From an uncultured Ectothiorhodospiraceae bacterium (GTDB taxonomy: Bacteria; Pseudomonadota; Gammaproteobacteria; JAABTG01), in assembly GCA_964439835.1 (NCBI GenBank), contig CAYTPQ010000015.1, forward strand, positions 310 to 64,309: a stretch of 64,000 nt of DNA. The letters are read 5' to 3'. Both the position numbers and the translations under genes were made by a program. Within the stretch, counting starts at the first letter, position 1, and each line of letters opens with the position of its first letter. The notes beneath the pieces were generated by a model, which worked only from the letters and a program-made list of their open reading frames with translations, ran no database searches and was not told where the DNA came from. Shown here in pieces: positions 5,067 to 55,944 of this stretch.

Positions 5067-6404
5067 TCAGCGTTCCACCCCCAGTCGGCGCATCCGCCGC
5101 CACAGGGTGCTGCGGTCGATCCCCAAGAGCTGTGCCGCCTCCGCCCGGTTGCCGCCAGTGCGCTCCAGGGCGTCGATGACCTCCCGGCGCTGGCGCTCCG
5201 TGGTGGGGGAGAGGGGGTCGGGGCGCGCGGGTGGCGGGGACTGCTCTCGCTGGAAGCGGCAGAGGTCCTGGGGCAGGCTCGCGAGGTTGACCACGCCGTT
5301 CTCGGCGCAGATGACGCTGTGCTCGACGGCGTTGGCGAGCTCCCGGACGTTGCCCGGCCAGGGGTAGTCCATCAGCAGCTTCATGGCCTCCCGGCTGAAG
5401 ATCACGCCGGAGGGGTAGCCGCGGGCGACCAGCTTGGATTGGAAGTGGTGCACCAACAGCGGGATGTCGCCCGGCCGCTCGCGCAGCGGTGGGACGTAGA
5501 TCGGGATGACCGCCAGCCGGTAGTAGAGATCCGGCCGGAACACCGCTGCGTCGACCGCGGCGCGCAGGTTGCAGTTCGAGGCGCTGACGACGCGCACGTC
5601 GACCGAGACGCTGTGGTCGGAGCCCACCGGCTCGAAACGGCCGTCCTGCAGCGCACCGAGCAGCTTGGGCTGCAGGTGCAGGGGGATCTCGGCGATCTCG
5701 TCCAGGAACAGGGTCCCACCGTCGGCGCTCTGGAAACGGCCGGCCCGGTCGCGGATGGCGCCGGTGAAGGCCCCCTTCACGTGCCCGAACAGCTCGGACT
5801 CGATCAGGCTGTCGGGGATAGCCGCGCAGTTGAGCTCGATGAGCGGACCGTCCTTGCGCCGGCTGATCTGGTGTAGGAAGCGCGCGAGCTCGCTCTTGCC
5901 GGTCCCCGACTCGCCCTGCAGCAGCACGAAGGCGTCGGTCGGGGCGATCTGCCGCAGCCGGGCCACGATCTGCAACATTTCCGGGTCCGCCGTCACCAGG
6001 CCGCACCCTGACTTGCCCTGGAACACGGCCTCCCACTGCCGGTGCTCCGTGCGGTCGCAGACAATCAGCACGACCACGTCTCGCCCGCTCACGGGCAGGC
6101 GCACCAGGCCCCGATGGAACTCGTAGAAGCGCGTGCCTTCCGGTCCCGTGAGCTCCTCCGCGAAGGTCTGCAGTCGAGCCTCCGGGAAGCTGGTGGACAC
6201 CGCCTTGCAGGCCGCGAGCACCGGCAGCGGGAGCACGGCCGCCAGGTCACCCAGCGCTTGGGGATGCGCCTCGGGGGCGACCCGCAACAGGGAGCGGGCC
6301 GTGTCGTTCAGGTACAGGAGGGTTCCGTCGGTTTCGGCGATCAGGATGCCGCTCTCGGTCTGGGCGGCCAACAGGTCCAGCACCGGCTCGATGTCTTGCA
6401 GCAT
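5067..6404 (-). CDS. Sigma54-dependent enhancer-binding transcriptional activator (PAS-like, AAA+, Fis-type HTH; no receiver domain)
   Basis: Walker A GESGTGKS, GAFTGA loop, GGTLFLDEI, YPWPGNVREL and C-terminal HTH (GGNRAEAAQLLGIDRSTLWRRM). GGAGG RBS upstream. Confidence 0.95.
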   Translation of the reverse strand: MLQDIEPVLDLLAAQTESGILIAETDGTLLYLNDTARSLLRVAPEAHPQALGDLAAVLPLPVLAACKAVSTSFPEARLQTFAEELTGPEGTRFYEFHRGLVRLPVSGRDVVVLIVCDRTEHRQWEAVFQGKSGCGLVTADPEMLQIVARLRQIAPTDAFVLLQGESGTGKSELARFLHQISRRKDGPLIELNCAAIPDSLIESELFGHVKGAFTGAIRDRAGRFQSADGGTLFLDEIAEIPLHLQPKLLGALQDGRFEPVGSDHSVSVDVRVVSASNCNLRAAVDAAVFRPDLYYRLAVIPIYVPPLRERPGDIPLLVHHFQSKLVARGYPSGVIFSREAMKLLMDYPWPGNVRELANAVEHSVICAENGVVNLASLPQDLCRFQREQSPPPARPDPLSPTTERQRREVIDALERTGGNRAEAAQLLGIDRSTLWRRMRRLGVER

Positions 6405-6587
6405 ACGACCTCCCGGTCGAATTCCCGAGCGTTTCCTTAATCGGCCCGCAACGCCGCAACCTGTCGCAACGAGTCACGCACCGAGGGGGGCCAGGTGGAC
6501 GCCCCGGCGCAGTCCCCGAAAGACGTGCACAATATTCCCACGGCGCTCTGCGGGGGCCCGACGCCTTGATCCAGGATAATCCAGAAT

Positions 6588-6604
6588 GTTGCGCCGTGCG
6601 CAAC
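6588..6604. promoter_or_regulatory. Palindromic candidate upstream activator sequence GTTGCGC-CGT-GCGCAAC
   Basis: Perfect 7-3-7 inverted repeat between the activator gene and the sigma54 promoter; three more CGCAAC half-sites at 6447-6470. Confidence 0.5.
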
Positions 6605-6629
6605 GTCGCGCCTCATCTGCTAGCCTATA

Positions 6630-6642
6630 AATCAGATAGTTA
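6630..6642 (+). promoter_or_regulatory. IHF binding site
   Basis: AATCAGATAGTTA matches WATCARNNNNTTR, in an AT-rich patch between the candidate UAS and the -24/-12 element. Confidence 0.7.
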
Positions 6643-6647
6643 TGTAG

Positions 6648-6663
6648 TGGCATGTCGATTGCT
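6648..6663 (+). promoter_or_regulatory. Sigma54 (RpoN) -24/-12 promoter
   Basis: TGGCATGTCGATTGCT matches TGGCAC-N5-TTGCW with exact GG/GC spacing (one C>T difference), about 95 nt upstream of the cytochrome ATG. Confidence 0.88.
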
Positions 6664-6756
6664 GCACATACAAGCGCAAAACATGCCATGCCGGACCGCC
6701 AGGGCCGGGAACCGGTCCCCGGGCGGAGCAATAAACCCAATGATGAGGAGAATGCT

Positions 6757-8214
6757 ATGAGAGGACGGGGCCTGGCCGCCGTAGCGGCCCTTGTTGCAGG
6801 TCTACCTGCTCTTGCCGGGGCGGAGGCCCCCGGCCCACAGGCGGGAATCAACCCGGACCAGCCTTTCCCGCCGTCGTACATCACGACCGACACGGGCAAG
6901 CCGATCAAGGTCGAGGATTTCCAGGATGCGACGCTGTGCATGGGCTGTCACCCGCGCCAGGCAGCGGGCTGGCAGGGCTCCATGCACTCGATCTCGTTCG
7001 TGGACCCGGTGTTCCAGAACCTCTGGGCGTTGGGTGACAAGGAGACGAAAGGGGCGACGATGAACCACTGCGGGGCCTGCCACACCGGCATCGGCATCGC
7101 CAGCGGCACCGTCAAGTTCGAGCCCGACAAGCCCGTGCACGGGGCCTTCACCGCGCCGGGCGTCGCCGCCAAGGGCGTGTCCTGCGACCTCTGCCACACC
7201 ATTTCGGGCTCGAACATCCTGAAGACCGCGGTGCTCGAGCACGGCAACGCCTCCTACGTGATGTCGCCCGGCCAGACCAAGCGGGGCCCGCTGCGTGACT
7301 CCAAGTCGCCGTTCCACCAGACGGCGTTCTCGGAGCTGCACACCAAGGCGGACTTCTGCGGCAACTGCCACAACATCTTCCACCCGACCAACAACTTCCC
7401 GGTCGAGCGGACCTACGACGAGTGGAAGTACTCGGTCTACGCCCAGAACGGCATCCAGTGTCAGGACTGTCACATGACGCCGGTGAAGACGGCGATCAAG
7501 GTCGCCGATGCCCTGAAGCCGGCCAAGGAGCTGGGTGACAAGGAGCTGGGTGGTGCCGCTGGCCTCGGCGGGCCGATGGACCGGGCGCTTGTGCACGACC
7601 ACGGCTTCGTCGGCGGCAACGCCGTCATCGCGCCGCTGCTCGGCGTTCAGGGTGGGGAGGAGCACAAGGCGATGGCGATCGAGCGGCTGCAAAACGTCGC
7701 CGAGCTCGAGGCCAAGGTGGAGCAGGTCAAGGACAGCCTGCACCTGTTGAAGGTGAAGGTGATCAACGCCCGCGCCGGCCATCACCTGCCGACCAGTCTG
7801 ACCGAGGTCCGTCAGGTCTGGGTCGAGGCGATCGTGACCGACGACAAGGGCCGCGAGCTGATGCGCTCCGGCACCATGACGGCCGAGAACGAGCTGCCCA
7901 AGGACGTGGTGATCTTCAACTCGCACGCGGTGGACAAGGACGGCAAGGACACGGTGAAGCCGTGGGAGGTCTCCCGGTTCACCGACACCACCACCATCCC
8001 GCCGAAGGGCTACAAGTACGCCAAGTATCCCTTCAACGTGCCGGCCGACGCGACCAAGCTGAAGGTCGAGGCGAAGCTGCACTATCGGTCCTTCGCGCAA
8101 GGTATTGCCGACCTGCTGGTGGGCAAGGGGACGGTGAAGGTGCCGTCAGTCGAGATGGAGTCCATCACGAAGGAGTTCCCGGTCAGCGCAGGGAAGGTGG
8201 CGCTGGCGCACTGA
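6757..8214 (+). CDS. Periplasmic pentaheme cytochrome c with C-terminal beta-sandwich domain
   Basis: GAGGAG RBS then ATG at 6757; signal peptide (MRGRGLAAVAALVAGLPALAGA); five CxxCH motifs (CMGCH, CGACH, CDLCH, CGNCH, CQDCH). Confidence 0.9.
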   Translation: MRGRGLAAVAALVAGLPALAGAEAPGPQAGINPDQPFPPSYITTDTGKPIKVEDFQDATLCMGCHPRQAAGWQGSMHSISFVDPVFQNLWALGDKETKGATMNHCGACHTGIGIASGTVKFEPDKPVHGAFTAPGVAAKGVSCDLCHTISGSNILKTAVLEHGNASYVMSPGQTKRGPLRDSKSPFHQTAFSELHTKADFCGNCHNIFHPTNNFPVERTYDEWKYSVYAQNGIQCQDCHMTPVKTAIKVADALKPAKELGDKELGGAAGLGGPMDRALVHDHGFVGGNAVIAPLLGVQGGEEHKAMAIERLQNVAELEAKVEQVKDSLHLLKVKVINARAGHHLPTSLTEVRQVWVEAIVTDDKGRELMRSGTMTAENELPKDVVIFNSHAVDKDGKDTVKPWEVSRFTDTTTIPPKGYKYAKYPFNVPADATKLKVEAKLHYRSFAQGIADLLVGKGTVKVPSVEMESITKEFPVSAGKVALAH

Positions 8215-8233
8215 CAGGAGGCTGAAAGGCCAG

Positions 8234-8319
8234 AGAAGGGGGCGCTGCGGATCCCCGGCAGCCGACCCGCGCGGCGCGGGCGGCGCGGAGCGAGCACCCG
8301 GCGGCCCCCTTCTTTTTTT
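8234..8319 (+). terminator. GC-rich stem with large structured loop followed by a T run (possible terminator or attenuator)
   Basis: AGAAGGGGGC (8234-8243) pairs with GCCCCCTTCT (8304-8313), followed by a T tract. The roughly 60-nt loop is atypical for an intrinsic terminator. Confidence 0.4.
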
Positions 8320-8347
8320 GCGGGCGAAACCATTGGAGGTCATCGAG

Positions 8348-8938
8348 ATGCACAACAAGAAACTGGGTGCGGTGCTGACTGCCGGGTTGCTGGCGGCCAG
8401 CGCCTCCGCGGTTGCTGCCGGTCCCAGCGCGGCGACGGTGGTTGGCCACACCTGTGCCGGCTGTCACGGCACGAACGGCGCGAGCAAGGGCCCTGCGCCG
8501 ATCCTCGGTGGGCTGTCCGAGATGTACCTGGCCTCGACCATGGCCGCCTACAAGGACGGCACGCGGTACTCGACCATCATGGGCCGGCTCGCCAAAGGCT
8601 ACGACCAGGGCGAGATCCTGGACATGTCCAAGTTCCTCGCGGGCCAGCCCTGGGTCTCCGGAACGCGACCGGTGGACGCGAAGCTGGCCGAGAAGGGTAA
8701 GCAGGTGCACAACGCCAACGGCTGCGCCGGCTGCCACGGAGCGAACGGGATTTCTCCGATGCCGACGGCGCCGCGCATGGCGGGGCAGTACGCGGACTAC
8801 CTGTACTTCCAGATGCAGGACTACAAGGACGCGAGCAAGGCCGTTCCGGCCAGCGCGATGGTCATGCGCAGCATGTTGACTCCGGTTAGCGACGACGACG
8901 TGAAGGCGCTCGCGGCCTTCTACGCCAGCGCGAAGTGA
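8348..8938 (+). CDS. fccA: Flavocytochrome c sulfide dehydrogenase, diheme cytochrome subunit
   Basis: GGAGGT RBS, signal peptide, two CAGCH motifs in a c4-like diheme layout, directly upstream of fccB. Confidence 0.88.
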   Translation: MHNKKLGAVLTAGLLAASASAVAAGPSAATVVGHTCAGCHGTNGASKGPAPILGGLSEMYLASTMAAYKDGTRYSTIMGRLAKGYDQGEILDMSKFLAGQPWVSGTRPVDAKLAEKGKQVHNANGCAGCHGANGISPMPTAPRMAGQYADYLYFQMQDYKDASKAVPASAMVMRSMLTPVSDDDVKALAAFYASAK

Positions 8939-8951
8939 GGAGGGAGACGCC

Positions 8952-10235
8952 ATGAGCAGCATCAATCGTCGCGAGTTCGTCAAGCTGGCCGGCGCCGCAA
9001 CCGCGCTTGGCACCATGGGGTTCCCCCTGATCAGCTTCGGCGCCCCGAAGGCGAAGGTGGTGGTCGTCGGTGGCGGCTACTCCGGCGCCATCGTCGCGAA
9101 GTACACGCGGATGTATTCACCGGACATCGAGGTGACGCTGATCGAGAAGGAGAAGGAGTACATCTCCTGCCCGTTCAGCAACGAGGTGATCGGCGGTGAG
9201 CGGGACATCAAGACGCTCACCTTCACCTACGCGGGCCTCGGCAAGCACGGGGTCAACGTGGTGACCGACGAGGTGGTGGAGATCGACACCGCGAAGAAGA
9301 CGGTGAAGACCAAGGGCGGGAAGAGCTTCCAGGCCGACTATCTGGTGGTGGCGCCAGGCGTCGACTTCAAGTGGGGGGCGATTGCTGGGTACGACCAGGC
9401 GGCCAGCGAGCTGGTTCCGCACGCCTGGAAGGCGGGACCGCAGACCCTGCTGCTGAAGAAGCAGGTCGACGCGATGAAGGACGGGGGGCTTGCGATCATC
9501 GTGGCGCCGGCCAACCCCTTCCGTTGCCCGCCCGGCCCCTACGAGCGGGCGGCGACGATGGCCTTCAACCTGACGCATCACGGCAAGAAGAAGTGCAAGG
9601 TGATGATCCTGGACGCCAAGGACGCGTTCTCCAAGCAGGGGTTGTTCACCGCCGGGTGGAAGCACAACTACGGCGACATGATCGAGTGGGTGGGTGCCTC
9701 GGCGGGCGGCAAGGTGGAGTCGATTGACGCCAAGACTCTGACGGTGAAGGGCGAGTTCGACGAGTACAAGCCCGACGTGCTGAACGTCATTCCGCCGCAG
9801 AAGGCGGGTGCGATTGCGGAGAAGGCGGGTCTCACGGACGAGAAGGGCTGGTGCCCAGTGCACGGGGCGACCTTCGAGTCCAAGAAGGCGTCCGGGGTGT
9901 ACGTGGTAGGTGACGCCTGCATTGCCGGGGCGATGCCGAAATCGGGCTACGCGGCGAACACGCAGGCGAAGGTGGCGGCGGCGAACATCGCGGCAGCGGT
10001 GCTGGGGGTGAAGATCGCGAAGCCGGCGTTGACGAACACCTGTTACAGCCTGATTGCGCCGGACTACGGGATCTCGGTGGCAGGGGTGTACGGCATCGGG
10101 CCGGACGGGAACATCGTGGACGTCCAGGGCGCGGGCGGGGTCTCACCGGCGGACGCCAGCCTGGAGGCGCGCAAGCGCGAGGCGGTTTACGGCACGAGTT
10201 GGTACGATAATATCGTGGCCGACACCTTCAGCTGA
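8952..10235 (+). CDS. fccB: Flavocytochrome c sulfide dehydrogenase, flavoprotein subunit
   Basis: Tat signal (NRREFVK), FAD motif GGGYSG, catalytic cysteine contexts RCPPGPYERA and TNTCYSL. Confidence 0.93.
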   Translation: MSSINRREFVKLAGAATALGTMGFPLISFGAPKAKVVVVGGGYSGAIVAKYTRMYSPDIEVTLIEKEKEYISCPFSNEVIGGERDIKTLTFTYAGLGKHGVNVVTDEVVEIDTAKKTVKTKGGKSFQADYLVVAPGVDFKWGAIAGYDQAASELVPHAWKAGPQTLLLKKQVDAMKDGGLAIIVAPANPFRCPPGPYERAATMAFNLTHHGKKKCKVMILDAKDAFSKQGLFTAGWKHNYGDMIEWVGASAGGKVESIDAKTLTVKGEFDEYKPDVLNVIPPQKAGAIAEKAGLTDEKGWCPVHGATFESKKASGVYVVGDACIAGAMPKSGYAANTQAKVAAANIAAAVLGVKIAKPALTNTCYSLIAPDYGISVAGVYGIGPDGNIVDVQGAGGVSPADASLEARKREAVYGTSWYDNIVADTFS

Positions 10236-10341
10236 GGTTTGGCGTAGTCACTCGGCCGGTGTCTCCGGCGGGCGTTGCACCGCCTCGCCGGAAGCACCGG
10301 CCACAATTTGCCGCAGTGAGTTGGCGACTGCCAGGGGAGTG

Positions 10342-10947
10342 ATGCCCGTGTCCGAAACGAAGGAAGGGGGAGCGTCCGGCCGTCCCCACCGCAATTCGAA
10401 TCCCGCGGAAGCACCCTCGCAGGAGACCTCACGGGCGGCCGGGGGCACCGGCAGCACCGTGGCAAAGGTCGGGTTGATCGGCGTTCTCCTGATCGCCGCG
10501 GCGGGCGCCTTTCTGGGGATGGGCCTGTTCATGTGGAACATGGGCCGGGACATGACGACCATGACCACGGCCGTGGTCCAGATGGGCAAGGACGTCACCA
10601 GCATGGCCAACGACATGACGGTGATGACCGCGCAGATGAAGGTGATGGCCAAGAGCATGGTCGACGGCCAGGCCGCCATGGGCGCCGATCTGAATGCGAT
10701 GCGAGGGGGCATGGACTACATCGCCGGGAACATCGGCAGCATGAGCAAGGACATGCACGCGCTCAACGAGAACATTGCGGCGATGACCGGCAACATCGGG
10801 GCCATGACCAACGCGATGAACCAGATGAACGCCTCGATGGCGACGATGAACGGGTCCATCGGCGTCATGACCGGCACGATGGGCCACATGGCGTACGACA
10901 TCAACAAGTTCACCCGACCCGAGAGCATCATGACGCCGTTCCGGTAG
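10342..10947 (+). CDS. Membrane-anchored methionine-rich coiled-coil protein, unknown function
   Basis: GGGGAG RBS then ATG at 10342; one TM helix followed by about 27 Met, largely in alternating 3/4 spacing. Confidence 0.8.
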   Translation: MPVSETKEGGASGRPHRNSNPAEAPSQETSRAAGGTGSTVAKVGLIGVLLIAAAGAFLGMGLFMWNMGRDMTTMTTAVVQMGKDVTSMANDMTVMTAQMKVMAKSMVDGQAAMGADLNAMRGGMDYIAGNIGSMSKDMHALNENIAAMTGNIGAMTNAMNQMNASMATMNGSIGVMTGTMGHMAYDINKFTRPESIMTPFR

Positions 10948-10979
10948 GTCACTGCCGGTTGAACGGGAGGAGTAGAGCG

Positions 10980-11624
10980 ATGAAACGAGCCACGCTGCTG
11001 ACCCTCACGGCGCTGCTGACGAGCGCTGCAGCGGCGCAGCCCGGCGGTGCGCCGGGCTCCGCCTACCCGCCGGCGCCCGGTTACGGTGCGCCCGGCTACG
11101 GAGACCCTGCCGCCGGAGCGCCCCAGGGCTACGGTGGGATGCCGGGCTACGGCGCCCCGTCCTATGGTGGGCCGCCTCCGGGCGCCCCGTACGGCGCACC
11201 GGGGGCCGCGCCGCCGGCTGGCTACCCCGGCGCGGGTGGCCCGCCGGTGCCTGGTGGGGCCGCGGCCGAGAAGAAAGGGCCCATGGACAAGATGATGCAG
11301 CCGGTGCAGAAGATGATGGAGCCCGCAGAGAAGATGATGGCGCCGGCCGGGAAGATGATGGGCCCGATGGAGAAGATGATGGGCTCGGAGAAGGGTGCGG
11401 CGCCTCAGGCGGGGCCGCCGTCCCAGGGGCCCTACGGCGCGGCACCCGGCTATCCGGGCGCGCCGGGATACGGAGGTCCGCCTCAGGGCTACGGTCCTGC
11501 GCAGGGGTATGGGGCGCCCCCGGGCTACGGTGCCCCGCAGGGCTACGGCGCACCTCCACCCGGGGCTTACGGCCCCGGCCAGGGCGGGTATCCGGGTTAC
11601 GCCCCGCCGCCGCCTGCCCAGTGA
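10980..11624 (+). CDS. Secreted Gly/Tyr/Pro-rich protein resembling sulfur globule envelope proteins (Sgp-like)
   Basis: GGAGGAG RBS; Sec signal MKRATLLTLTALLTSAAAA; many GYGAP/PGYG repeats flanking five KMM-containing heptads. Family assignment rests on composition only. Confidence 0.7.
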   Translation: MKRATLLTLTALLTSAAAAQPGGAPGSAYPPAPGYGAPGYGDPAAGAPQGYGGMPGYGAPSYGGPPPGAPYGAPGAAPPAGYPGAGGPPVPGGAAAEKKGPMDKMMQPVQKMMEPAEKMMAPAGKMMGPMEKMMGSEKGAAPQAGPPSQGPYGAAPGYPGAPGYGGPPQGYGPAQGYGAPPGYGAPQGYGAPPPGAYGPGQGGYPGYAPPPPAQ

Positions 11625-11643
11625 GGTCGGCCCCGGGCTGACC

Positions 11644-11683
11644 CCGCGGCCGGTGGCGGATGTCTGCCACCGGCCGCGGTTTT
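11644..11683 (+). terminator. Rho-independent terminator closing the cytochrome/fcc operon
   Basis: CCGCGGCCGGTGGCGGA-TG-TCTGCCACCGGCCGCGG stem followed by TTTT. Confidence 0.7.
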
Positions 11684-11856
11684 CCCGAATCCCTCTCCAA
11701 CAAGCGGGCCCGTGCCCGGGGGGTTGCGCAACGCCCCCGTGGGTTGCCGCGGTCACGCGTGGCGGCCGCCCGCGCAGTAGCCGGGATCGCTTGCGCCCGT
11801 GGCGCGCGGCTCCGAGAATGGGCTGACCCGCCTACACGCCAGGAGGGCTCACCGCC

Positions 11857-12057
11857 GTGACGGTCACCCAGTTCGAAGAGATCGCGCTCACCGTCGGCAT
11901 CGCGGCCCTCGTCGGCCTGATGTTCTTCATCGTCTACGACCTGGCGCGCAAGTCTCGCGCGGGCCGGCTGGGGACGATTGTCCTGTTCCTGGCCCTCGGG
12001 CTCGGCGTTCTAGGGTTCCTCGCGAAGACCCTGTTCCAGTTCACGCTCGGTCTCTGA
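11857..12057 (+). CDS. DUF2788-family small membrane protein
   Basis: 66 aa, two TM helices, family-like motif IVYDLARKSRAGRLGTIVLFLALGLG. Confidence 0.8.
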   Translation: MTVTQFEEIALTVGIAALVGLMFFIVYDLARKSRAGRLGTIVLFLALGLGVLGFLAKTLFQFTLGL

Positions 12058-12284
12058 GTGCGGATACCGGACTGCGCGTAGATCCGCCAAACTGAAGCAG
12101 ACCGAGTCGCGACGCCGCACAGGGGGCATCCGCGACAGGCCTTCCACAGACTTACCCACAGAAAATGTGGACAGGTCCGAATTCCGTCGGCGCCCCCGGA
12201 GCTTGCCCGCACTTCGGCAGGGCTCACCTGAGCTGCCGTGCCTAACTGACCCTTGGTGCCTGTCGTCGGGAGGCAGTCCGCGGC

Positions 12285-13736
12285 TCACTCCGGCGTTGAG
12301 AGCCGCCTCGCCACCTCGCGGATGACGGCCCCCGCCATCTGCACGTCGGCGCGGGTCGTCTGCGTCTGGCCAACCTGGAAGCGGATCACAAAGCGTCCTT
12401 CGTGTGTCGTCTGGCTCAGATAGATCCGCCCGTCGTCGTTGATCGCCTGTAGCAGGGCCGCGTTGTGCGCGTCGACGCGCTCGGGCTCGGCGCCCGCGAG
12501 GGCGGGTGGGAGGTGGCGGAAGGTGAACAGCGACAGCATCGGCGGGGTGACGACCTCGAACATCGGGTCCGCCGCGAGCTCGCGCGCCAGCTCTTGCGAC
12601 CAGGCAATGTGCGATCGGATCTTCTCGCGCAGCGCCTCGACACCGTAGCTGCGGATCACGAACCAGAGCTTGAGCGCCCGGAAGCGGCGTCCGAGCGGGA
12701 CCGACCACTCGTTGAAGTCCGTCACCCCAGGGACCGCGCCCTCGCCCTGGCCGAGCGTGCGCAGATAGGCGGGCTTGAGTCCCAGCGCGTCGGTGAGCGA
12801 GCGCGGGTCGCGCACGAAGTGCGCCGAACAGTCGAAGTTCGTGAACAGCCACTTGTGCGGATTGAAGACCAGGCTGTCGACCGCCTCTGCCCCCTGCATG
12901 AGGTGGCGGTGCTCGGGGCAGATCATCGCCGCCCCCGCCCAGGCGGCGTCCACGTGCACGTAAAGCCCATGGCGGCGGGCCACCGCAGCGACGGCGGAGA
13001 GGTCGTCGCAGGCGCCGATCGACGTGCCGCCGAGGCAGCCGACCACCGCAATCGGTAGCCGCCCCTGCTGCCGATCGGCGGTGATCGCGGCGTCGAGTCC
13101 GCCGACGTCCATGGCGAAGCGAGGACCGATCGCCGCGATCTTGACCAGATTCTCGCTGCCGATCCCGGCCATGCGGACGGCCTTCTCGACCGAGGAATGC
13201 GTCTGCGTCGAGGCGTAGACCCGGAGCACCGGCTGTCCCGCCAGCCCCGCGCGGTTGCCGGCCTGCCCTAGCGCCCTCTCCCGCGCAGCCAGGATCGCGG
13301 CGAAGGTGGCGGTAGTCGCCGAGTCCTGGATCACGCCGGAGAACTCGGCGGGCAGTCCGATCATCTGGCGCAGCCACTCGAGCACGCGGACCTCGAGCTC
13401 GGTGGCCGCCGGTGAGGTCTGCCAGAGCATGCACTGCGCTGCGAGGGTCGCGGTCAAGAACTCCGCGACGACGGAGGGCGGGCTGGAATTCGCGGGGAAG
13501 TAGGCGAAGAAGCGAGGATGTTGCCAGTGCGTCATCCCCGGGAGGATGGTCCGTTCGAAGTCGGCGAAGATCGCGGCCATCGGCTCTCCCTGCTCCGGCG
13601 GCGCGAGGGGTATCGCGGCGTGAATCGCACCGGGCTTCGTCTGGGCCCGCACGGGGAAGCCCGCGACCCGTTCCAGGTAATCCGCCGCCCAGTTCGCCGC
13701 TTGGGCCGCCCAGTGCCGGAACTCGGTCCGATCCAC
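12285..13736 (-). CDS. Group II PLP-dependent decarboxylase (aromatic-L-amino-acid decarboxylase-like)
   Basis: HWQHPRFFAYFP, TSPAATELE, HVDAAWAG and PLP-lysine motif FNPHKW. Likely start GTG at 13736 (track ORF starts 13853). Confidence 0.9.
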   Translation of the reverse strand: MDRTEFRHWAAQAANWAADYLERVAGFPVRAQTKPGAIHAAIPLAPPEQGEPMAAIFADFERTILPGMTHWQHPRFFAYFPANSSPPSVVAEFLTATLAAQCMLWQTSPAATELEVRVLEWLRQMIGLPAEFSGVIQDSATTATFAAILAARERALGQAGNRAGLAGQPVLRVYASTQTHSSVEKAVRMAGIGSENLVKIAAIGPRFAMDVGGLDAAITADRQQGRLPIAVVGCLGGTSIGACDDLSAVAAVARRHGLYVHVDAAWAGAAMICPEHRHLMQGAEAVDSLVFNPHKWLFTNFDCSAHFVRDPRSLTDALGLKPAYLRTLGQGEGAVPGVTDFNEWSVPLGRRFRALKLWFVIRSYGVEALREKIRSHIAWSQELARELAADPMFEVVTPPMLSLFTFRHLPPALAGAEPERVDAHNAALLQAINDDGRIYLSQTTHEGRFVIRFQVGQTQTTRADVQMAGAVIREVARRLSTPE

Positions 13737-13862
13737 CCGCCTGTTCCCACCTCGGGCTGGAGGCTGCTGGGACTTCGCGCGAAGACGCTGTTCCAGGCCG
13801 CTCTCGGTCGGCGCCTGGCGACGGCTCGTCAGGCGAGCCGCCGCCAGGCCCACGGGCCTGGG

Positions 13863-14894
13863 TCAGGTGTGGGGAGGGTGCTGGGGCGGCAACGCCGGCG
13901 CCAGCCCCCGTGACTGCAGCTCCGCGTACCACAGGTCGTGGTGCTGCTGGACCCAGCGGGCATCCGCATACCCGGTCTTCATAGTCTCGAAGGCCCCCTC
14001 CACGCCGACCGTCGCCAGATAGAGGTGGACGGTGAAGAAGGCGAGCACCACGATCGAGGCGACCGTGTGCAGCACGTGCGCCGCCTGCATCACCTCCCGC
14101 CCCTGGCCATAATTGGGGAAGTCGAGCACCAGGCCGGAGACGCTGAGCGCAATCCCCATGAAGACTGCGGTCCAGAACCACAGCTTCTGGCCGGCGTTGA
14201 CCTTCTCGGAGCTCGGGTGGGGCCCGCCGAGGTAGCCACCGGCCATCAGGAACCACTTCAGGTCGACCTTCAGATTGAACAGCGAGTCCCGCAGGTACTT
14301 GAAGAACATGATCGGGACCATGACGACGAAGAAGGGTCCTACGAAGTTGTGCACGTTCTTGCTCACGATCGCGATCGCGGAGAAGACCTCCGGGCCGAGG
14401 ACCGGCATCAGGATCCAGCGTCCGAACAGCAGCACCACACCTGTCAGGCCCAGGAGCACGAACGGGATCGCGACCAGCCAGTGCACGACCCGATCCATGC
14501 GCGTGTAGCGCTCTACCTGTACGCCGGAGCGTCCGCCTTCGATGCGCAGGCGGCCCCGGAACAAGAAGTACAGGACGAACACGCCGACCATGCCGCCGAG
14601 GACGAGGCCGCCGTACGGCACCAGATAGGACACCCGGTACTCCCGCCAGAGCTCGCCGGTCTCGGTGATCAGGACGCCGGTGTCGACACCTTGAACTTGA
14701 GTCGCGCCCACGCCGGCGTGGCGAGCCTCGCGCCAGAGATCGGCACCGGGGTTCGGCACCGAGATCGGGCCACTTCCCAGAGGGGGAGTCTGGGCGAGGA
14801 GGGGAAGGGCGAGCGTCAGGAGCAACACCGCAACGAATGCCCGGCCGAGGCGGGCCGGTGCTGCGCGAGGTGTTTCACTTTGCAGTCCGCTCAC
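13863..14894 (-). CDS. fdhI: Formate dehydrogenase gamma subunit (cytochrome b556) with periplasmic N-terminal extension
   Basis: Four TM helices with heme His residues (VVHW, VHNF, VLHT, TVHLY), KVNAGQK motif, downstream of fdhB. Start approximate. Confidence 0.88.
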   Translation of the reverse strand: MSGLQSETPRAAPARLGRAFVAVLLLTLALPLLAQTPPLGSGPISVPNPGADLWREARHAGVGATQVQGVDTGVLITETGELWREYRVSYLVPYGGLVLGGMVGVFVLYFLFRGRLRIEGGRSGVQVERYTRMDRVVHWLVAIPFVLLGLTGVVLLFGRWILMPVLGPEVFSAIAIVSKNVHNFVGPFFVVMVPIMFFKYLRDSLFNLKVDLKWFLMAGGYLGGPHPSSEKVNAGQKLWFWTAVFMGIALSVSGLVLDFPNYGQGREVMQAAHVLHTVASIVVLAFFTVHLYLATVGVEGAFETMKTGYADARWVQQHHDLWYAELQSRGLAPALPPQHPPHT

Positions 14895-15077
14895 GGAAGG
14901 TCCTCCCGCGGCACGGCCGTCGCTGCGGTGGCCGCCCGCTCGAACAGCGCCGGATCGGCTCCGCACCGCGCCTGTCCCGGGGGGTGTGGAGCCACCCGCT
15001 GCGCCCGATAGGTCCGCGGGAGCGGTGACCTACGCCGGTCTGCCGGCGCTGAGGCCGCCGCTCCCTCGGAGTAGCCT

Positions 15078-15150
15078 CATCCCTGGAGGCATGGAGCCCC
15101 CGGGCGGGCCGAGTCCAGCGCTCGCCCCGGGGCTCCATGCCTCTCGGATG
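15078..15150. repeat. Long intergenic hairpin between fdhB and fdhI
   Basis: GAGGCATGGAGCCCCCGGG (15086-15104) pairs almost perfectly with CCCCGGGGCTCCATGCCTC (15125-15143), extended by CATCC/GGATG. Confidence 0.6.
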
Positions 15151-15156
15151 GCATGG

Positions 15157-15741
15157 TCAGCCCTTCTTGCCGTAGGCAGCGCCCCAGCCGAAGGAGAAGC
15201 CGGCGGCGCCCCGGTAGGCCACCCGCTGCCGGAAGATGTCGGAGACCACGTCGCCGTCGCCAGCCAGGAGGGCCTTGGTGGAGCACATCTCCGCGCAGAG
15301 CGGGAGCTTCCCCTCGGATAGCCGATCGCGCCCGTACTGGCGCACACCGTCCGCCCCCTCGACCGGTCCGCCGGCGCAGAAGGTGCACTTGTCCATCTTG
15401 CCCCGGGAGCCGAAGGCGCCACCGGCCGGGAACTGCGGTGCCCCGAACGGGCAGGCGTAGAAGCAGTACCCGCAGCCGATGCAGATGTCCTTGTTGTGCA
15501 GTACCACGCCGTCGTCGGTCTGGTAGAAGCAGTCGACCGGGCAGACCGCCATGCACGGGGCATCCGAGCAGTGCATGCAGGCCACCGAGAGCGAGCGCTC
15601 GCCGGGCGAGCCGTCCTTGATGGTCACCACCCGGCGCCGGTTGACGCCCCAGGGGATCTCGTGCTCGTTCTTGCACGCCGTCACACACGCGTTGCACTCG
15701 ATGCAGCGCTCCGCGTCACACAGGAACTTCATGCGGGCCAT
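15157..15741 (-). CDS. fdhB: Formate dehydrogenase iron-sulfur (beta) subunit
   Basis: Four 4Fe-4S Cys groups (CIECNAC, CMHCSDAPC, CIGCGYC, KCTFC). Confidence 0.93.
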   Translation of the reverse strand: MARMKFLCDAERCIECNACVTACKNEHEIPWGVNRRRVVTIKDGSPGERSLSVACMHCSDAPCMAVCPVDCFYQTDDGVVLHNKDICIGCGYCFYACPFGAPQFPAGGAFGSRGKMDKCTFCAGGPVEGADGVRQYGRDRLSEGKLPLCAEMCSTKALLAGDGDVVSDIFRQRVAYRGAAGFSFGWGAAYGKKG

Positions 15742-15758
15742 GGCTCAATCCCCTCCTG

Positions 15759-54070: not shown

Positions 54071-54706
54071 TCAGGGCGCGTGCGCCCGTGCCGGCCCGAT
54101 GCGCGAGAAGCCTGGCAGGCGCAGGGCGAGGAGTGCCACTAGGACCCCGGTGTACACGAGCGGGTTCAGGGTGTCGGCCTTGACCAGCCAGAGGTAGTGC
54201 AAGCAGGCGAGCACAGCGATGACGTAGACCAGCTGGTGGATCTGCTTCCAGCGTCGGCCGCCCAGGCGCCGGACCATGCCGTCGGTGGAGGTCGCGGCGA
54301 GGGGGACCAGCAGGACCAGGGCGGTGAAGCCGACCGTGATGTAGGGGCGCTTGACCACGGACTCGGCGATCTCTGCCAGGTCCAGGCCCTGGTCGACCAC
54401 GACGAAGGTGAGGAAGTGCAGCAGCGCGTAGACGAACGCGGACACGCCAATCATCCGCCGGAACCGCAGCAGCCAGCCCCAGCCGGTCAGCCGGCGCAGC
54501 GGCGTGATGGCGAGCGTGACGAGCAGCAGCCGCAGGGCCCAGATCCCCGTCTCGTGCAGCACCGCTTCCACGGGGTTCGCGCCCAGGGCGTCTGCGAGGC
54601 CGCGCCAGACGAGCACCGCCAACGGTGTCGCGAGCAGGAGGAGGAGGGCGGTCTTCGCCGCCCACCAGGGGAACCGGCGGGGCCCGGCAGCCGGCGCGAG
54701 GCCCAC
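54071..54706 (-). CDS. msrQ: Protein-methionine-sulfoxide reductase heme-binding subunit
   Basis: ANPVEAVLHETG, RRMIG, YALLHF, KRPYITVG, WKQIHQLVY, LHYLWLVK. Confidence 0.93.
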   Translation of the reverse strand: MGLAPAAGPRRFPWWAAKTALLLLLATPLAVLVWRGLADALGANPVEAVLHETGIWALRLLLVTLAITPLRRLTGWGWLLRFRRMIGVSAFVYALLHFLTFVVVDQGLDLAEIAESVVKRPYITVGFTALVLLVPLAATSTDGMVRRLGGRRWKQIHQLVYVIAVLACLHYLWLVKADTLNPLVYTGVLVALLALRLPGFSRIGPARAHAP

Positions 54707-54710
54707 GGCG

Positions 54711-55673
54711 TCAGAAGTACCGCGTCAGGTCCATCCCCGAGTACAGCGAGGCGACCTCCTCGGCGTAGCCGTTGAAGGGCAGGGTGGGGATCTTGCCGGC
54801 GAGGAAACCGGCGCCGATCCGGCGCTCCTTCTTCTGGCTCCAGCGCGGGTGGTCGACCGCCGGGTTGACGTTGGCGTAGAAGCCGTACTCCTTCGGCGCC
54901 TCCAGGCTCCAGGAGGTCTTCGGCTCGGTCTCGGTGAACTCCACCCGCACGATCGACTTGATGCTCTTGAAGCCGTACTTCCAGGGCACGACGATGCGCA
55001 GTGGCGCGCCGTTCTGGTTCGGCAGCACCTCGCCGTAAAGACCGACCGCGAAGATCGAGAGCGGGTGCATGGCCTCGTCCATGCGCAGACCCTCCCGGTA
55101 CGGCCACTCCAGCACCGGCCGCCGGGTGCCCGGCATCTGGGCCGGGTCGTAGAGGGTCTGGAAGGCCACGTACTTGGCCTTCGAGGTCGGCTGGAAGCGC
55201 TTCAGCACCTCGCCCATGGGCACGCCGACCCATGGCACCACCATCGACCAGGCCTCCACGCAGCGCAGGCGGTAGACGCGCTCCTCGAGCGTGTGGCCCT
55301 TCAGGACGTCCTCCAGGGCGTAGGTGCCGGGCCGCTCGCAGTGGCCGGCGACGACCACGCTCCAGGGCTTCGTCTTCATCAGCCCTGCGTACTTGGCCGG
55401 GTCCTCCTTGTCCAGGCCGAACTCGTAGAAGTTGTTGTAGCGGGTGACGTCTTCGTAGCGGGTCAGCGTATCGTCCGTGCCGAAGGGGCCCTTGACCACC
55501 CCGGCGAGCTTCTCGCCCTTGCCCTGGGCCTGGACGGGATCAAGCCCCCCGAGCGCCGCCCCGGCAACGGCCGCCGCCGAGCCGACGAGGAAGCGGCGCC
55601 GTTCCCGGTAGACCTCCGGCGGGGTGATCTCGGACGACAGGACCGCACTCGCGCGGCGGACTCGGATCAGCAT
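54711..55673 (-). CDS. msrP: Protein-methionine-sulfoxide reductase catalytic subunit
   Basis: SEITP, Tat [42 protein letters not shown]; ATG at 55673. Confidence 0.95.
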
Positions 55674-55792
55674 GATGCAAGACTCCTTCGGAACGCTATC
55701 CAGTCGACCCGAAAGGCCGCCGGGGGTTCCTTGCCTGCCGCGGCAAGGACCGAACACTCCGGAAACGCCCGCCGGTGAGCCTGTGAGATGAT

Positions 55793-55863
55793 CACCGCAG
55801 GGACGCAGAGGACGCAAAGTCGGTCGATCGGGTTGCCGCGGTTGCCTTTGCGTCTTTGCGGTG
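55793..55863. repeat. Palindromic intergenic element, family B
   Basis: CACCGCAGGGACGCAGAGGACGCAAAG ... CTTTGCGTCTTTGCGGTG; same architecture as 36908-36979. Confidence 0.6.
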
Positions 55864-55944
55864 GATGTGCAGACCTTCCGCAAGGCGGTCGTTCGCGGAG
55901 GTCGGCATGTCGTTCAGACGTCTCCGCACCGGAGCCGCAACGCG

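Follow-up and report, generated by a model that had tools for sequence, protein, structure and literature searches.

MetZip, a predicted membrane-anchored periplasmic rod with a methionine-filled heptad core, encoded beside flavocytochrome c genes in an uncultured gammaproteobacterium

Sulfur-globule proteins (Sgps) are described as signal-peptide-bearing, proline-spaced, keratin-like proteins without recognisable domains (PMC7356093; PMC10386293). SgpA-D of Allochromatium vinosum and Beggiatoa are periplasmic and linked to sulfide oxidation genes and an RND-type exporter, and SgpD was proposed to contain long helices (PMC10386293; PMC7356093). Another periplasmic protein of unusual composition is MrpX of Azospira suillum, a small, soluble, methionine-rich hypochlorite scavenger (20% Met, 44% charged residues), whose gene is co-transcribed with yedYZ (msrPQ) under SigF (PMC4436054). 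Proteins of the DUF948/YoxC group (PF06103, COG4768; function unknown) pass from an N-terminal transmembrane (TM) helix straight into a coiled coil, and Lpp, adhesin stalks, reovirus sigma-1 and fibritin are fibrous heptad-repeat rods with small polar surface residues. Copper is stored by Csp1 and Csp3 in Cys-lined four-helix bundles, while CusA, CusB and Ctr1 possess Met3 Cu(I) sites, and in the periplasm, an oxidising compartment, Cu(I) sites are normally built from Met alone.

Here, these systems are compared with MetZip (“methionine-heptad protein”), which is encoded in a window of 64,000 nucleotides (contig CAYTPQ010000015.1) from an uncultured Ectothiorhodospiraceae bacterium known only from sludge and wetland metagenomes (Table 1). 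The reading frame contains no internal stops, and both frame and start are considered correct because GC3 is 0.92 in this frame versus 0.84 in an overlapping antisense ORF and because the N-terminus (xxVSETKE) is common to the closest homologue. Transcript fragments in wetland metatranscriptomes span the gene, with contigs that do not cover the 107 bp between the end of the upstream fccB and the start of MetZip. A scan of positions 6300-12300 found neither a sigma-70 promoter nor an intrinsic terminator. A sigma-54 site directly before MetZip was considered and rejected, as by eye the spacer has only GG-N9-GC, one base short; the promoter-like site before the cytochrome genes belongs to a set of sigma-54-type matches whose total in the whole window is no higher than chance.

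Table 1. Features of the MetZip locus; positions refer to the window.
Feature	Position	Strand	Basis or remark
Divergent sigma-54 enhancer-binding protein	5067..6404	-	Kept with the cytochrome/MetZip cluster in L001, L031, L034 and L035
Sigma-54-type promoter-like site TGGCATGTCGATTGCT, before cytochrome genes	6648..6663	+	Consensus match only, 1 mismatch
Pentahaem c-type cytochrome	6754..8214	+	Five CXXCH; no curated family
fccA-like dihaem cytochrome c	8348..8938	+	ORF listed from 8318
fccB, flavocytochrome c sulfide dehydrogenase flavoprotein, Tat signal	8952..10235	+	Pfam FCSD_central 3.4e-46, FCSD-flav_bind 1.2e-27
MetZip, whole ORF	10342..10947	+	201 aa plus stop
MetZip residues 1-42, variable low-confidence N-terminal tail, predicted cytoplasmic	10342..10467	+	AlphaFold2 (AF2), alignment A3, positive-inside count
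MetZip residues 43-66, single TM helix, predicted signal anchor	10468..10539	+	AF2, alignment A3, positive-inside count
MetZip residues 67-106, heptad segment CC1	10540..10659	+	Periodicity, family alignment
MetZip residues 107-123, conserved non-heptad insert, site of register shift	10660..10710	+	Alignment, AF2
MetZip residues 124-190, heptad segment CC2	10711..10911	+	Alignment
MetZip residues 186-201, conserved C-terminal motif D-I-N-K-F-T-R-P-E-S-I-M-T-P-F-R	10897..10944	+	Alignments, hhalign
Secreted Gly/Pro/Tyr-rich partner, 214 aa, 3' of MetZip	10980..11624	+	

MetZip contains 28 Met including the initiator, 27 of which lie within residues 60-197. This agrees with the initial annotation, which had counted about 27 after the TM helix and had placed them at the heptad core with 3/4 spacing; the string it quoted (MGRD-MTT-MTTA-VVQ-MGKD...) is present as written. 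Of the last 142 residues, 19% are Met, whereas 20 other ORFs from the window average 1.66% (binomial P ~1e-20), and the Met-Met gaps past the TM helix are all 3, 4, 7, 10 or 14. The Fourier spectrum of the Met indicator has its maximum at exactly 3.50 residues, a power that none of 5000 shuffles reaches. The heptad register changes once, from a = 1 mod 7 up to residue 106 to a = 5 mod 7 from residue 124, and this shift spans the conserved insert. The protein has no Cys, three His, one Trp, six Pro and no Gly/Tyr repeats.

Among 45 unique relatives with a median identity of 56%, Met occupies 69% of the core positions, against 11% for Ile, 9% for Val and 2.5% for Leu; at 13 core positions, every sequence has Met. 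Family-wide, CC1 has 100% Met at d, 70% Met and 29% Val at a, Ala/Gly/Thr at e and Asp/Ser/Asn at g; the corresponding positions of CC2 are 78% Met (d), 55% Met and 36% Ile (a), Asn/Ser/Thr (e) and Asp/Asn/Ser (g). At non-core positions, Met is not among the 12 commonest residues, and the only indel among the aligned relatives is exactly one heptad (seven residues, in CC2). The core composition, the 13 fixed Met, the scarcity of Met outside the core and the heptad-length indel argue for selection on Met itself rather than on any hydrophobic residue, and the pattern is, judged from these alignments, under selection. A full-text literature search for “methionine zipper” yielded nothing comparable. 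We know of no earlier description of a natural coiled coil in which Met makes up about 70% of the a/d positions, Leu is nearly absent from them and this composition has stayed fixed over deep divergence.

Conservation extends to three non-heptad elements. The end of the TM helix, G-M-G-L-F-M-W, is highly conserved, with G59, M60, F63 and M64 invariant in alignment A3. The insert follows the consensus V-D/E-G-Q-A-x-M-x-x-D-(F/L)-x-x-V/M-R-x-G, in which G109 and R121 never vary and conservation reaches 91-98% at Q110, D116 and G123 (45 sequences). In the C-terminal motif, which takes the form D-x-N-K-F-x-x-P-x5-P-F among MetZip relatives, D186, P193 and P199 are invariant and F200 is 98% conserved (45 sequences); the motif is common to all three subfamilies that were recognised, with the family-wide form (D/N)-x-N-x-(M/F)-x-x-P-x3-5-(M/F)-x-(P)-F/W (alignments A2-A5).

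The MetZip family search returned 79 representative clusters at E<=1e-3 among 1.84 billion proteins. A sister subfamily gave 1008 matches, in Gammaproteobacteria and Magnetococcales. MetZip and this subfamily were matched by hhalign at 99.1% (E 8e-19) and a second subfamily comparison gave 98.8%, scores that coiled-coil, composition-biased profiles can inflate. MetZip and the two sister subfamilies are, by sequence comparison, one homologous and undescribed family, defined by a single N-in TM helix, a rod of 100 or more residues in which Met recurs every seven, and the C-terminal motif, all of which MetZip possesses. Known sulfur oxidisers are found in the lineages to which the source names of relatives point: Chromatiales, Ectothiorhodospiraceae, Sedimenticolaceae, Ca. 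Kentrum and Magnetococcales. Scans of MetZip and its relatives against Pfam and NCBIfam found no family above threshold, the sub-threshold coiled-coil noise being DUF1664, DUF948, IcmG/DotF, SlaB and MakE. Some sources name relatives as methyl-accepting chemotaxis proteins. This name was rejected, as MCPsignal (PF00015) found no match in MetZip at E up to 1 and the likeness to the structures of such proteins is that of a generic coiled coil.

AlphaFold2 predicts one continuous helix over residues 38-191 (pLDDT 76-95), in which the insert is still helical; pLDDT falls below 50 at residues 8-34 of the tail. The hydrophobic segment is most readily interpreted as a signal anchor and not a cleaved signal peptide, because it starts only at residue 43 after a 42-residue tail and because its conserved GMGLFMW end is continuous with the helix. 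K or R immediately precedes the membrane helix in nearly all relatives listed. On average, the N-flank carries 2.4 K/R versus 1.1 in the C-flank, with N exceeding C in 28 of 37 unique relatives and the reverse in none. By the positive-inside rule, MetZip is thus assigned as bitopic, with its N-terminus inside and its C-terminus in the periplasm, as the initial annotation had supposed; the long stalk it envisaged likewise agrees with the uninterrupted predicted helix and the strict heptad pattern. The periplasmic rod, of about 125 residues, is predicted to be some 18.6 nm long. Most of this architecture can be regarded as established, namely an inner-membrane protein that crosses the membrane once, with a short N-tail in the cytoplasm and an uninterrupted heptad-repeat helix. 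We infer that copies of this helix associate in parallel as a coiled-coil rod, which is probably trimeric.

One of the closest described architectures is that of DUF948. PF06103 matched MetZip at residues 46-106 with 18.8 bits (E 0.0018), below the gathering cut-off of 37.2; remote relatives scored 16-25 bits, and many sister-subfamily members have precomputed matches. In contrast to DUF948, the MetZip family has a much longer rod, a Met-filled core and a conserved C-terminal P-x5-P-F motif. Weak profile matches were also obtained to Lpp, autotransporter adhesin stalks and sigma-1, with Pfam LPP (PF04728) at 13.3 bits (cut-off 29.1), and a profile search of the PDB returned generic, mostly trimeric fibrous coiled coils, Lpp among them. 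Unlike Lpp, MetZip is anchored by an inner-membrane TM helix rather than an outer-membrane lipid and its core is Met rather than Leu/Ile/Ala/Asn; it has no lipobox Cys and no C-terminal Lys, ending instead in R (VP or MR in relatives).

MetZip might be a plain structural envelope protein, a DUF948/YoxC-like membrane-anchored periplasmic spacer or strut with an Lpp-like role, whose Met core is a lineage-specific solution to coiled-coil packing without chemical function and whose gene neighbourhoods are incidental. The weak DUF948 and DUF1664 matches, the precomputed DUF948 matches in the sister subfamily, the generic and mostly trimeric PDB look-alikes, a conserved length with whole-heptad indels and varied contexts (16 of 36 loci show no recurring partner) all favour such a role. 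It would leave unexplained why Leu is so rare (2.5%) and Met invariant at 13 core positions among sequences only about 56% identical, and why two subfamilies repeatedly have secreted Gly/aromatic-rich proteins, cytochromes and one and the same RND exporter as neighbours; the missing lipobox and Lpp-type C-terminal Lys speak against it as well. We consider this explanation unlikely, though by no means far-fetched.

Loci of relatives were retrieved with the single MetZip protein and then with alignment A3 as queries. A dihaem, fccA-like cytochrome is the commonest gene class upstream of MetZip relatives, and pentahaem and dihaem cytochromes occur together with MetZip in 8 of 36 informative loci. 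The order fccA-fccB-MetZip is kept in four lineages at 65-81% identity (the window, L001/L018, L020 and L074/75). This adjacency holds only for the window's own subclade: FccB lies within 6 kb of MetZip in only 5 of the 36 loci, and 16 show none of the neighbour genes looked for. In nine loci, MetZip is preceded by genes for LysR, pirin and a small secreted protein that contains Cys; DegP and Hsp20 are encoded downstream in some of them. A neighbour of about 700 aa in these contexts was considered as the cyclase of a sister subfamily and rejected, as BLAST found no similarity; by sequence it resembles a PAS histidine kinase. The third homologous subfamily is located in adenylate/guanylate-cyclase (signalling) operons.

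Directly 3' of MetZip, five of 35 loci encode a secreted Gly/Pro/Tyr-rich protein with regularly spaced prolines. In the window, its 214 residues comprise 51 Gly (24%), 48 Pro (22%) and 18 Tyr (8%), with Pro gaps of mostly 4-7 and five central seven-residue K-M-M-x-P-x-x repeats; the equivalents are found in L025, L029, L033 and L042. In L076/77, L082 and L083, genes for secreted Gly/Trp/Tyr-rich proteins (100-135 aa) lie on either side of the sister-subfamily gene; in the Magnetococcales locus L078, such proteins are encoded upstream of it. L020 has members of both subfamilies around fccAB and, after them, an RND exporter that shares 64% identity with that of the L076-type clusters. Dihaem and pentahaem cytochromes, the Gly/Pro/Tyr- and Met-rich protein, a common RND exporter and Gly/aromatic-rich secreted proteins are the recurring wider neighbours.

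The repetitive partner in the window, with its regularly spaced prolines and keratin- or cell-wall-protein-like composition, fits the description of an Sgp, and the secreted Gly/aromatic-rich neighbours of the two subfamilies appear to resemble sulfur-globule proteins in a loose sense. The likeness is one of composition and architecture, since these neighbours match no model in Pfam or NCBIfam; exact-sequence look-ups found no names for them. The sgpD gene of A. vinosum likewise adjoins an RND-type exporter. It is the neighbours, and not MetZip, that the Sgp description fits: Sgps have cleavable signal peptides, are proline-spaced and Gly/aromatic-rich and lack a membrane anchor, whereas MetZip combines a conserved signal anchor with a Met-heptad rod, shows neither a cleavable signal peptide nor proline-spaced repeats and has no demonstrated sequence similarity to Sgps.

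The reading that we favour, tentatively and at rather less than even confidence, is that MetZip tethers or scaffolds the deposition of sulfur in the periplasm from its place in the membrane. As an accessory protein, it would assist sulfide oxidation and the handling of zero-valent sulfur in the periplasm of sulfur-oxidising Gammaproteobacteria. The a/d core of the rod is filled almost wholly by Met, and a conserved peptide with Pro and Phe sits at the rod's far end. Acting together, a thioether-rich, easily remodelled core or seam and this distal motif could keep deposits of hydrophobic sulfur, or the Gly/Pro/Tyr-rich protein coat around them, next to the inner membrane and in the vicinity of FccAB-type cytochromes and the associated RND exporter. 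Counted in favour were the fccAB order, the Gly/Pro/Tyr partner, the flanks of the sister subfamily, the L020 RND cluster and the sulfur-oxidiser lineages; counted against were the 16 of 36 partnerless loci, the rarity of FccB, the nosZ, LysR/pirin and cyclase contexts and the globule-like neighbours that match no model. A further idea, MetZip as a membrane anchor for FccAB, was suggested by the title of Kostanjevecki et al. 2000. It found no support, because the enzyme in question is reportedly anchored through lipidation of FccB.

The Met core also invites a copper function. In a trimer, the a/d layers would form three-thioether rings, and the rod could buffer, store or pass on periplasmic Cu(I)/Ag(I), for example to NosZ, with the neighbouring K-M-M-x-P-x-x repeat protein as a second Met-motif copper binder. 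Met-only sites are typical of Cu(I) binding in the periplasm, the strictly conserved positions of Met would suit sites of defined geometry, and Asp/Asn/Ser are conserved at g beside the core. Furthermore, MetZip and the Met-repeat, Gly/Pro/Tyr-rich protein lie directly upstream of clade II nosZ in L029, L033 and L042 (about two lineages), NosZ being a copper enzyme unrelated to sulfur storage. However, no cop, cus, pco, sil, nosL or nosD gene was recognised beside MetZip in the loci examined, most contexts contain haem or flavin enzymes rather than copper enzymes, and the L020 RND pump scores best as multidrug type (430 bits versus 236 bits for CusA/CzcA). Models of CusF, PcoE/SilE and CopC in Pfam and NCBIfam do not match MetZip, which besides lacking Cys has only three His and one Trp. 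Its likeness to Csps and Met3 sites is one of concept, a helical bundle core lined with sulfur ligands; unlike Csps, it has no Cys, and it shows no detectable sequence relation to these proteins and has no adjoining copper genes. A copper rod is in our view distinctly unlikely.

The Met-only core could also be a functional ligand array, in which the assembled oligomer provides stacked thioether rings, flanked by conserved Asp/Asn/Ser at g, for a soft, polarisable guest over the full length of the 18-nm rod. Zero-valent sulfur, as chains or rings, or else Cu(I) would be this guest, and the rod a novel type of protein “wire” or nucleation rail from the inner membrane to sulfur deposits. With the secreted Gly/Pro/Tyr- and Met-repeat protein and a dedicated RND exporter as partners, it would form a hitherto unrecognised sulfur-deposition module common to Gammaproteobacteria and Magnetococcales. 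We regard this as a speculative proposal of low probability. The channel proposed in the initial annotation, a hollow alpha-helical barrel of at least five helices with a thioether-lined pore carrying S8 or polysulfide across the periplasm like the PqiB needle, seems highly improbable: small e/g residues (Ala, Gly, Thr, Ser, Asn) would permit wide interfaces and an RND exporter is associated, but no measurement here points to an oligomer of five or more, g is mostly Asp/Asn/Ser, Met side chains, being long and flexible, would probably fill up any narrow lumen and the PDB look-alikes are mainly trimers.

MetZip could finally be a methionine-oxidation device, either an MrpX-like sacrificial oxidant sink, as the initial annotation had suggested among its options, or a sensor in which oxidation of core Met would dismantle the coiled coil. 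MetZip is periplasmic and at 19% Met close to MrpX with 20% (PMC4436054). The LysR/pirin/DegP/Hsp20 contexts and a Dps-like ORF recognised by eye in L031 look stress-related, sister members occur in signalling operons, and MsrPQ is encoded within the window (54071-55883), 43 kb from MetZip. In contrast to MrpX, which is soluble, highly charged and part of a yedYZ-mrpX operon, MetZip is membrane-anchored with positionally fixed core Met, and no msrP or msrQ match adjoins MetZip in any fetched family locus. A buried core under strict positional conservation is the opposite of what a disposable sponge needs. The sink idea is weakened by this positional conservation and by the missing msrPQ neighbours, and an oxidation device of either kind appears very unlikely.

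Taken as a whole, the interpretation given in the initial annotation is partly supported. Neither a cytoplasmic orientation, nor the lack of a coiled coil, nor a broad distribution unrelated to sulfur was found. Its link to sulfur holds as a recurrent genomic tie to sulfur oxidation, with fccA-fccB-MetZip in the window's own subclade and globule-like neighbours of two subfamilies; it is limited by FccB within 6 kb in only 5 of 36 loci, by the 16 partnerless loci and by the contexts with clade II NosZ or cyclases.

How bacteria organise hydrophobic zero-valent sulfur in the periplasm is a long-standing gap, which includes the site of globule nucleation, the attachment of globules to the membrane and the movement of sulfur among enzymes, the coat and the exporters. 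To our knowledge, the sulfur-globule components known are secreted coat proteins (Sgps) only, and no membrane component has been identified. The Met-core coiled coil is also of interest to protein science. Globule formation by a magnetococcus is noted in the literature, and the MetZip family occurs in lineages with such cultivable globule formers (Magnetococcus, with Sedimenticolaceae also among the source names). Widespread and searchable in genomes, the family is a concrete candidate for the missing membrane component of sulfur deposition.

The open reading frame (ORF) of the methionine-heptad protein MetZip reads cleanly through 201 residues and encodes 28 methionines, 27 of them within residues 60-197; Met accounts for 19% of that stretch, while the figure for 20 other ORFs in the window is 1.66% (binomial P ~1e-20). 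Past the membrane helix, successive methionines are separated by 3, 4, 7, 10 or 14 residues without exception, and the Fourier spectrum of their positions peaks at exactly 3.50 residues, with a power equalled in none of 5000 shuffles. These gaps and this period, together with a GC3 of 0.92 versus 0.84 in the overlapping antisense ORF and an N-terminus common to the closest homologue, bear out the initial annotation, which had described heptad core positions filled by Met. The antisense ORFs over MetZip and its downstream neighbour (GC3 0.84 and 0.80) were rejected as genes, since their GC3 is lower than that of MetZip and conservation across the region tracks the forward frame; they are artefacts of high G+C content. 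The neighbour's own frame has a GC3 of 0.81, level with theirs.

Coordinates of features in the window and in related loci (L handles)
Feature	Position (strand)	Remark
Divergent enhancer-binding protein	5067-6404 (-)	kept with cytochrome cluster in L001, L031, L034, L035
Sigma-54-type promoter-like site TGGCATGTCGATTGCT	6648-6663 (+)	1 mismatch
Pentahaem c-type cytochrome	6754-8214 (+)	five CXXCH; no curated family
Dihaem FccA-like cytochrome	8348-8938 (+)	paired with pentahaem cytochrome
Antisense ORF	10248-10712 (-)	rejected
MetZip	10342-10947 (+)
Antisense ORF	10716-11756 (-)	rejected
Secreted protein just downstream of MetZip	10980-11624 (+)	214 aa; no Pfam/NCBIfam match
PLP-dependent decarboxylase	12285-13853	beside formate-dehydrogenase-like cluster
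Formate-dehydrogenase-like cluster	13863-18635 (-)	large, ferredoxin-like, cytochrome b subunits; Pfam check: cytochrome b only
MsrQ and MsrP	54071-55883 (-)	Ferric_reduct, 1.2e-21; Oxidored_molyb, 5.7e-31; periplasmic methionine sulfoxide reductase pair
Secreted Cys-containing protein (example)	L008:7578-7976
Small secreted protein downstream of MetZip	L006:8565-8852 (+)
Small secreted protein downstream of MetZip	L036:1218-1499 (+)
Frameshifted MetZip homologue	L010:1456-1913
Gly/Trp/Tyr-rich low-complexity proteins	L076:5411-5719 (-), 6821-7228 (+)
Gly/Trp/Asn-rich secreted proteins	L078:4019-4985

MetZip changes register once: position a falls at 1 mod 7 as far as residue 106 and, from residue 124 onwards, at 5 mod 7. 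The two registers are separated by a conserved insert without heptads (residues 107-123, V-D/E-G-Q-A-x-M-x-x-D-F/L-x-x-V/M-R-x-G). Genome and metagenome scans identified 61 related loci, forming 53 unique groups including the window. A set of 45 unique sequences, sharing a median of 56% and no less than 43% identity with the window MetZip, has Met at 69% of its a/d positions, Ile at 11%, Val at 9% and Leu at just 2.5%; 13 core positions are 100% Met, while at non-core positions Met falls outside the 12 commonest residues. In the first segment (CC1, residues 67-106), a is 70% Met and 29% Val, d is 100% Met, e is Ala/Gly/Thr and g is Asp/Ser/Asn; in the second (CC2, residues 124-190), a is 55% Met and 36% Ile, d is 78% Met, e is Asn/Ser/Thr and g is Asp/Asn/Ser. 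The sole indel in the alignment is exactly seven residues long. Judged from sequence, the methionine core is unusual and the Met pattern of the family is under selection. Were MetZip a structural spacer, the exclusion of Leu would be left unexplained, as would its recurrent partner genes. A frameshift splits one homologue (L010) into two ORFs, reflecting either a pseudogene or an assembly error.

An AlphaFold2 prediction from a 25-sequence alignment gives a disordered tail (residues 1-37) followed by a single continuous helix without hairpin (residues 38-191), along which block-mean pLDDT falls from 95 to 76; residues 66-191 correspond to ~18.6 nm of helix. The hydrophobic segment (residues 43-66) ends in a highly conserved G-M-G-L-F-M-W. 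Across 37 unique relatives, the 15 residues before this segment carry on average 2.4 K/R versus 1.1 in the 15 after it (N-side higher in 28, equal in 9, lower in none), which points to an N-in topology with the rod in the periplasm. Past the helix lies a conserved tail, D-I-N-K-F-T-R-P-E-S-I-M-T-P-F-R; in the C-terminal region D186, P193 and P199 never vary, and conservation of F200 reaches 98%. Complementary e/g charges zip dimers. Register analysis of the relatives found no such charges in the MetZip heptads, and the small polar surface resembles that of trimeric fibrous proteins, so that we infer a trimeric rod. Profile matches in the PDB are otherwise generic and mostly trimeric fibrous proteins, including sigma-1, autotransporter adhesin stalks, Lpp, fibritin and viral fusion cores. 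A hollow barrel channelling S8 would have the small e/g residues in its favour and nothing specific beyond them.

No Pfam or NCBIfam model matched MetZip above threshold; the best sub-threshold Pfam match was DUF1664 (23.5 bits, cut-off 34.6), and DUF948 scored 18.8 bits (cut-off 37.2). A word-indexed search returned five relatives. Scanning 1.84 billion representatives exhaustively gave 79 at E<=1e-3, of which 18 reached E<=1e-10; the weaker matches of 180-210 aa have the full architecture, from the cytoplasmic head and single membrane helix through a Met at each seventh residue to the C-terminal motif. The near family, comprising MetZip and its closest relatives, aligns end to end with two sister subfamilies in profile-profile comparison (probabilities 99.1%, E 8e-19, and 98.8%, E 7.5e-17), scores that can be inflated for composition-biased coiled coils; membrane helix and C-terminal motif stay in register. 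The larger, ERFAK-type sister subfamily (motif ERFAKxFExSARRWELVVYPSLFAF; 1008 matches at E<=1e-6) occurs in Gammaproteobacteria, including Candidatus Kentrum, and in Magnetococcales; its members are named hypothetical, "YoxC" or, wrongly, "methyl-accepting chemotaxis protein" by their sources. A literature search for comparable "methionine zipper" coiled coils found nothing, and MetZip is the founding member of an undescribed family bordering DUF948/YoxC.

Neighbouring genes were counted within 6 kb of MetZip in the 36 unique loci whose upstream sequence extends 1.2 kb or more. A dihaem cytochrome c was present in 10, a pentahaem cytochrome in eight and FccB in five, and 12 had a small secreted Cys-containing protein without family, usually behind LysR and pirin; 16 had none of the tested genes. 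The order fccA-fccB-MetZip is confined to the window's subclade (L001/L018, 81% identity, then L020 and L074/75). MetZip is thus genuinely adjacent to FccB, though in this subclade only. The pentahaem/dihaem pair is kept in many related loci whether FccB is present or absent, sometimes with clade II nosZ downstream, and may represent an undescribed periplasmic electron-transfer module; resemblance of the pentahaem protein to ExtKL is restricted to its C-terminal third. A sigma-54-type site lies between the cytochrome/fccAB/MetZip genes and the divergent enhancer-binding protein, which appears to lack a receiver domain; total matches of this type in the window are no higher than chance. No sigma-70 promoter or terminator was found around MetZip in a scan of 6300-12300. 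The pentahaem gene, fccB and MetZip, but not the fccB-MetZip spacer, are matched by metatranscriptome contigs at 85-99% identity, one of which (204 nt) spans 10788-10991 with two differences. Transcription of MetZip, or of a relative very close to it, is therefore probable, DNA carry-over being another possible source of the contigs. The formate-dehydrogenase-like cluster, with a twin-arginine-like N-terminus on its large subunit, and the decarboxylase are ordinary genes unrelated to MetZip.

The secreted protein downstream of MetZip contains 51 Gly (24%), 48 Pro (22%), 39 Ala and 18 Tyr (8%), with five tandem 7-residue K-M-M-x-P-x-x repeats in its middle. Equivalents follow MetZip in L025, L029, L033 and L042 (5 of 35 loci including the window), and in the last three a Sec-type clade II nitrous-oxide reductase comes next (TIGR04246, E 1.5e-108, on a truncated fragment). 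This protein matches sulfur-globule proteins as they are loosely described in the literature, and it also resembles a Met-motif metal binder. MetZip could be read as a Cu(I)/Ag(I) rod, in which Met3 rings would stack with Asp, Asn or Ser beside them, with a Met-repeat partner and nosZ nearby; however, cop, cus and nos accessory genes are absent from the loci examined and the associated RND pump scores as multidrug type. The Cys-containing protein (~130 aa; ECRKEKDxSxC ... LCILW ... KPLCF, four conserved Cys) lies directly upstream of MetZip in its 12 loci (L004, L008, L009, L040, L044, L063, L068 and others), some with DegP and Hsp20 downstream, and is named hypothetical in Sedimenticolaceae and Chromatiaceae MAGs. 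In two unrelated loci, L006 and L036, the small secreted protein directly downstream of MetZip bears two EF-hand-like DxDxDG loops.

An oxidant sink, an option also raised initially and here likened to MrpX, is argued against by the core-buried, positionally fixed methionines, which ill suit a disposable sponge, and by msrPQ, which adjoins none of the family loci and lies 43 kb from the Met-rich proteins in the window. MrpX itself is a soluble protein with a high content of charged residues, and its gene accompanies yedYZ (PMC4436054).

In L076/77, L082 and L083, secreted Gly/Trp/Tyr-rich proteins (~100 and 133 aa) flank the ERFAK-type gene on both sides, near an RND exporter, an LTXXQ protein and a GDSL-like protein. 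The genes upstream of it in L078, a Magnetococcales locus, encode a ParA-like ATPase, an RND exporter and two secreted proteins rich in Gly, Trp and Asn. These Gly/Trp/Tyr(Asn)-rich neighbours are candidate sulfur-globule coat proteins. L020 unites both subfamilies: its ERFAK-type gene is oriented divergently to fccA-fccB-MetZip, after which come genes for a membrane-fusion protein and for an RND pump 64% identical to that of L076/77. The third subfamily (L011-L017, L069, L070, L072, L073) occurs as two paralogues of 183 and 184 aa, ~30% identical, arranged in tandem directly before the gene for a soluble class III cyclase (~680 aa), with a dCache-SpoIIE phosphatase nearby where flanks suffice; one lineage adds STAS, an Apyc1-like metallo-beta-lactamase-fold protein and a cNMP-binding transporter. 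This neighbourhood looks like a conserved signalling operon.

Sulfur-globule envelope proteins have cleavable signal peptides and regularly spaced prolines, without recognisable conserved domains (PMC10386293; PMC7356093), sgpD adjoins a hydrophobe/amphiphile exporter (PMC10386293), and intracellular sulfur globules were reported in a magnetococcus (PMC5088516). For both Met-heptad subfamilies, the secreted neighbours answer to this description, a likeness of composition and architecture only, because the Gly-rich ones match no curated Pfam or NCBIfam model. The periplasmic orientation, the fccAB link of the subclade, the shared RND exporter and these globule-protein-like neighbours point best to a part in the oxidation and deposition of sulfur in the periplasm, the single reading with the most support. 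The interpretation in the initial annotation is partly upheld. This reading stays inferential, because many loci lack the tested neighbours, other contexts (nosZ; LysR/pirin/DegP) point in different directions, and the source organism has been encountered only in metagenomes from sludge and wetland. The link to sulfur deposition, suggestive but unproven, would be accounted for most economically if MetZip acted as a membrane tether or scaffold in the periplasm.
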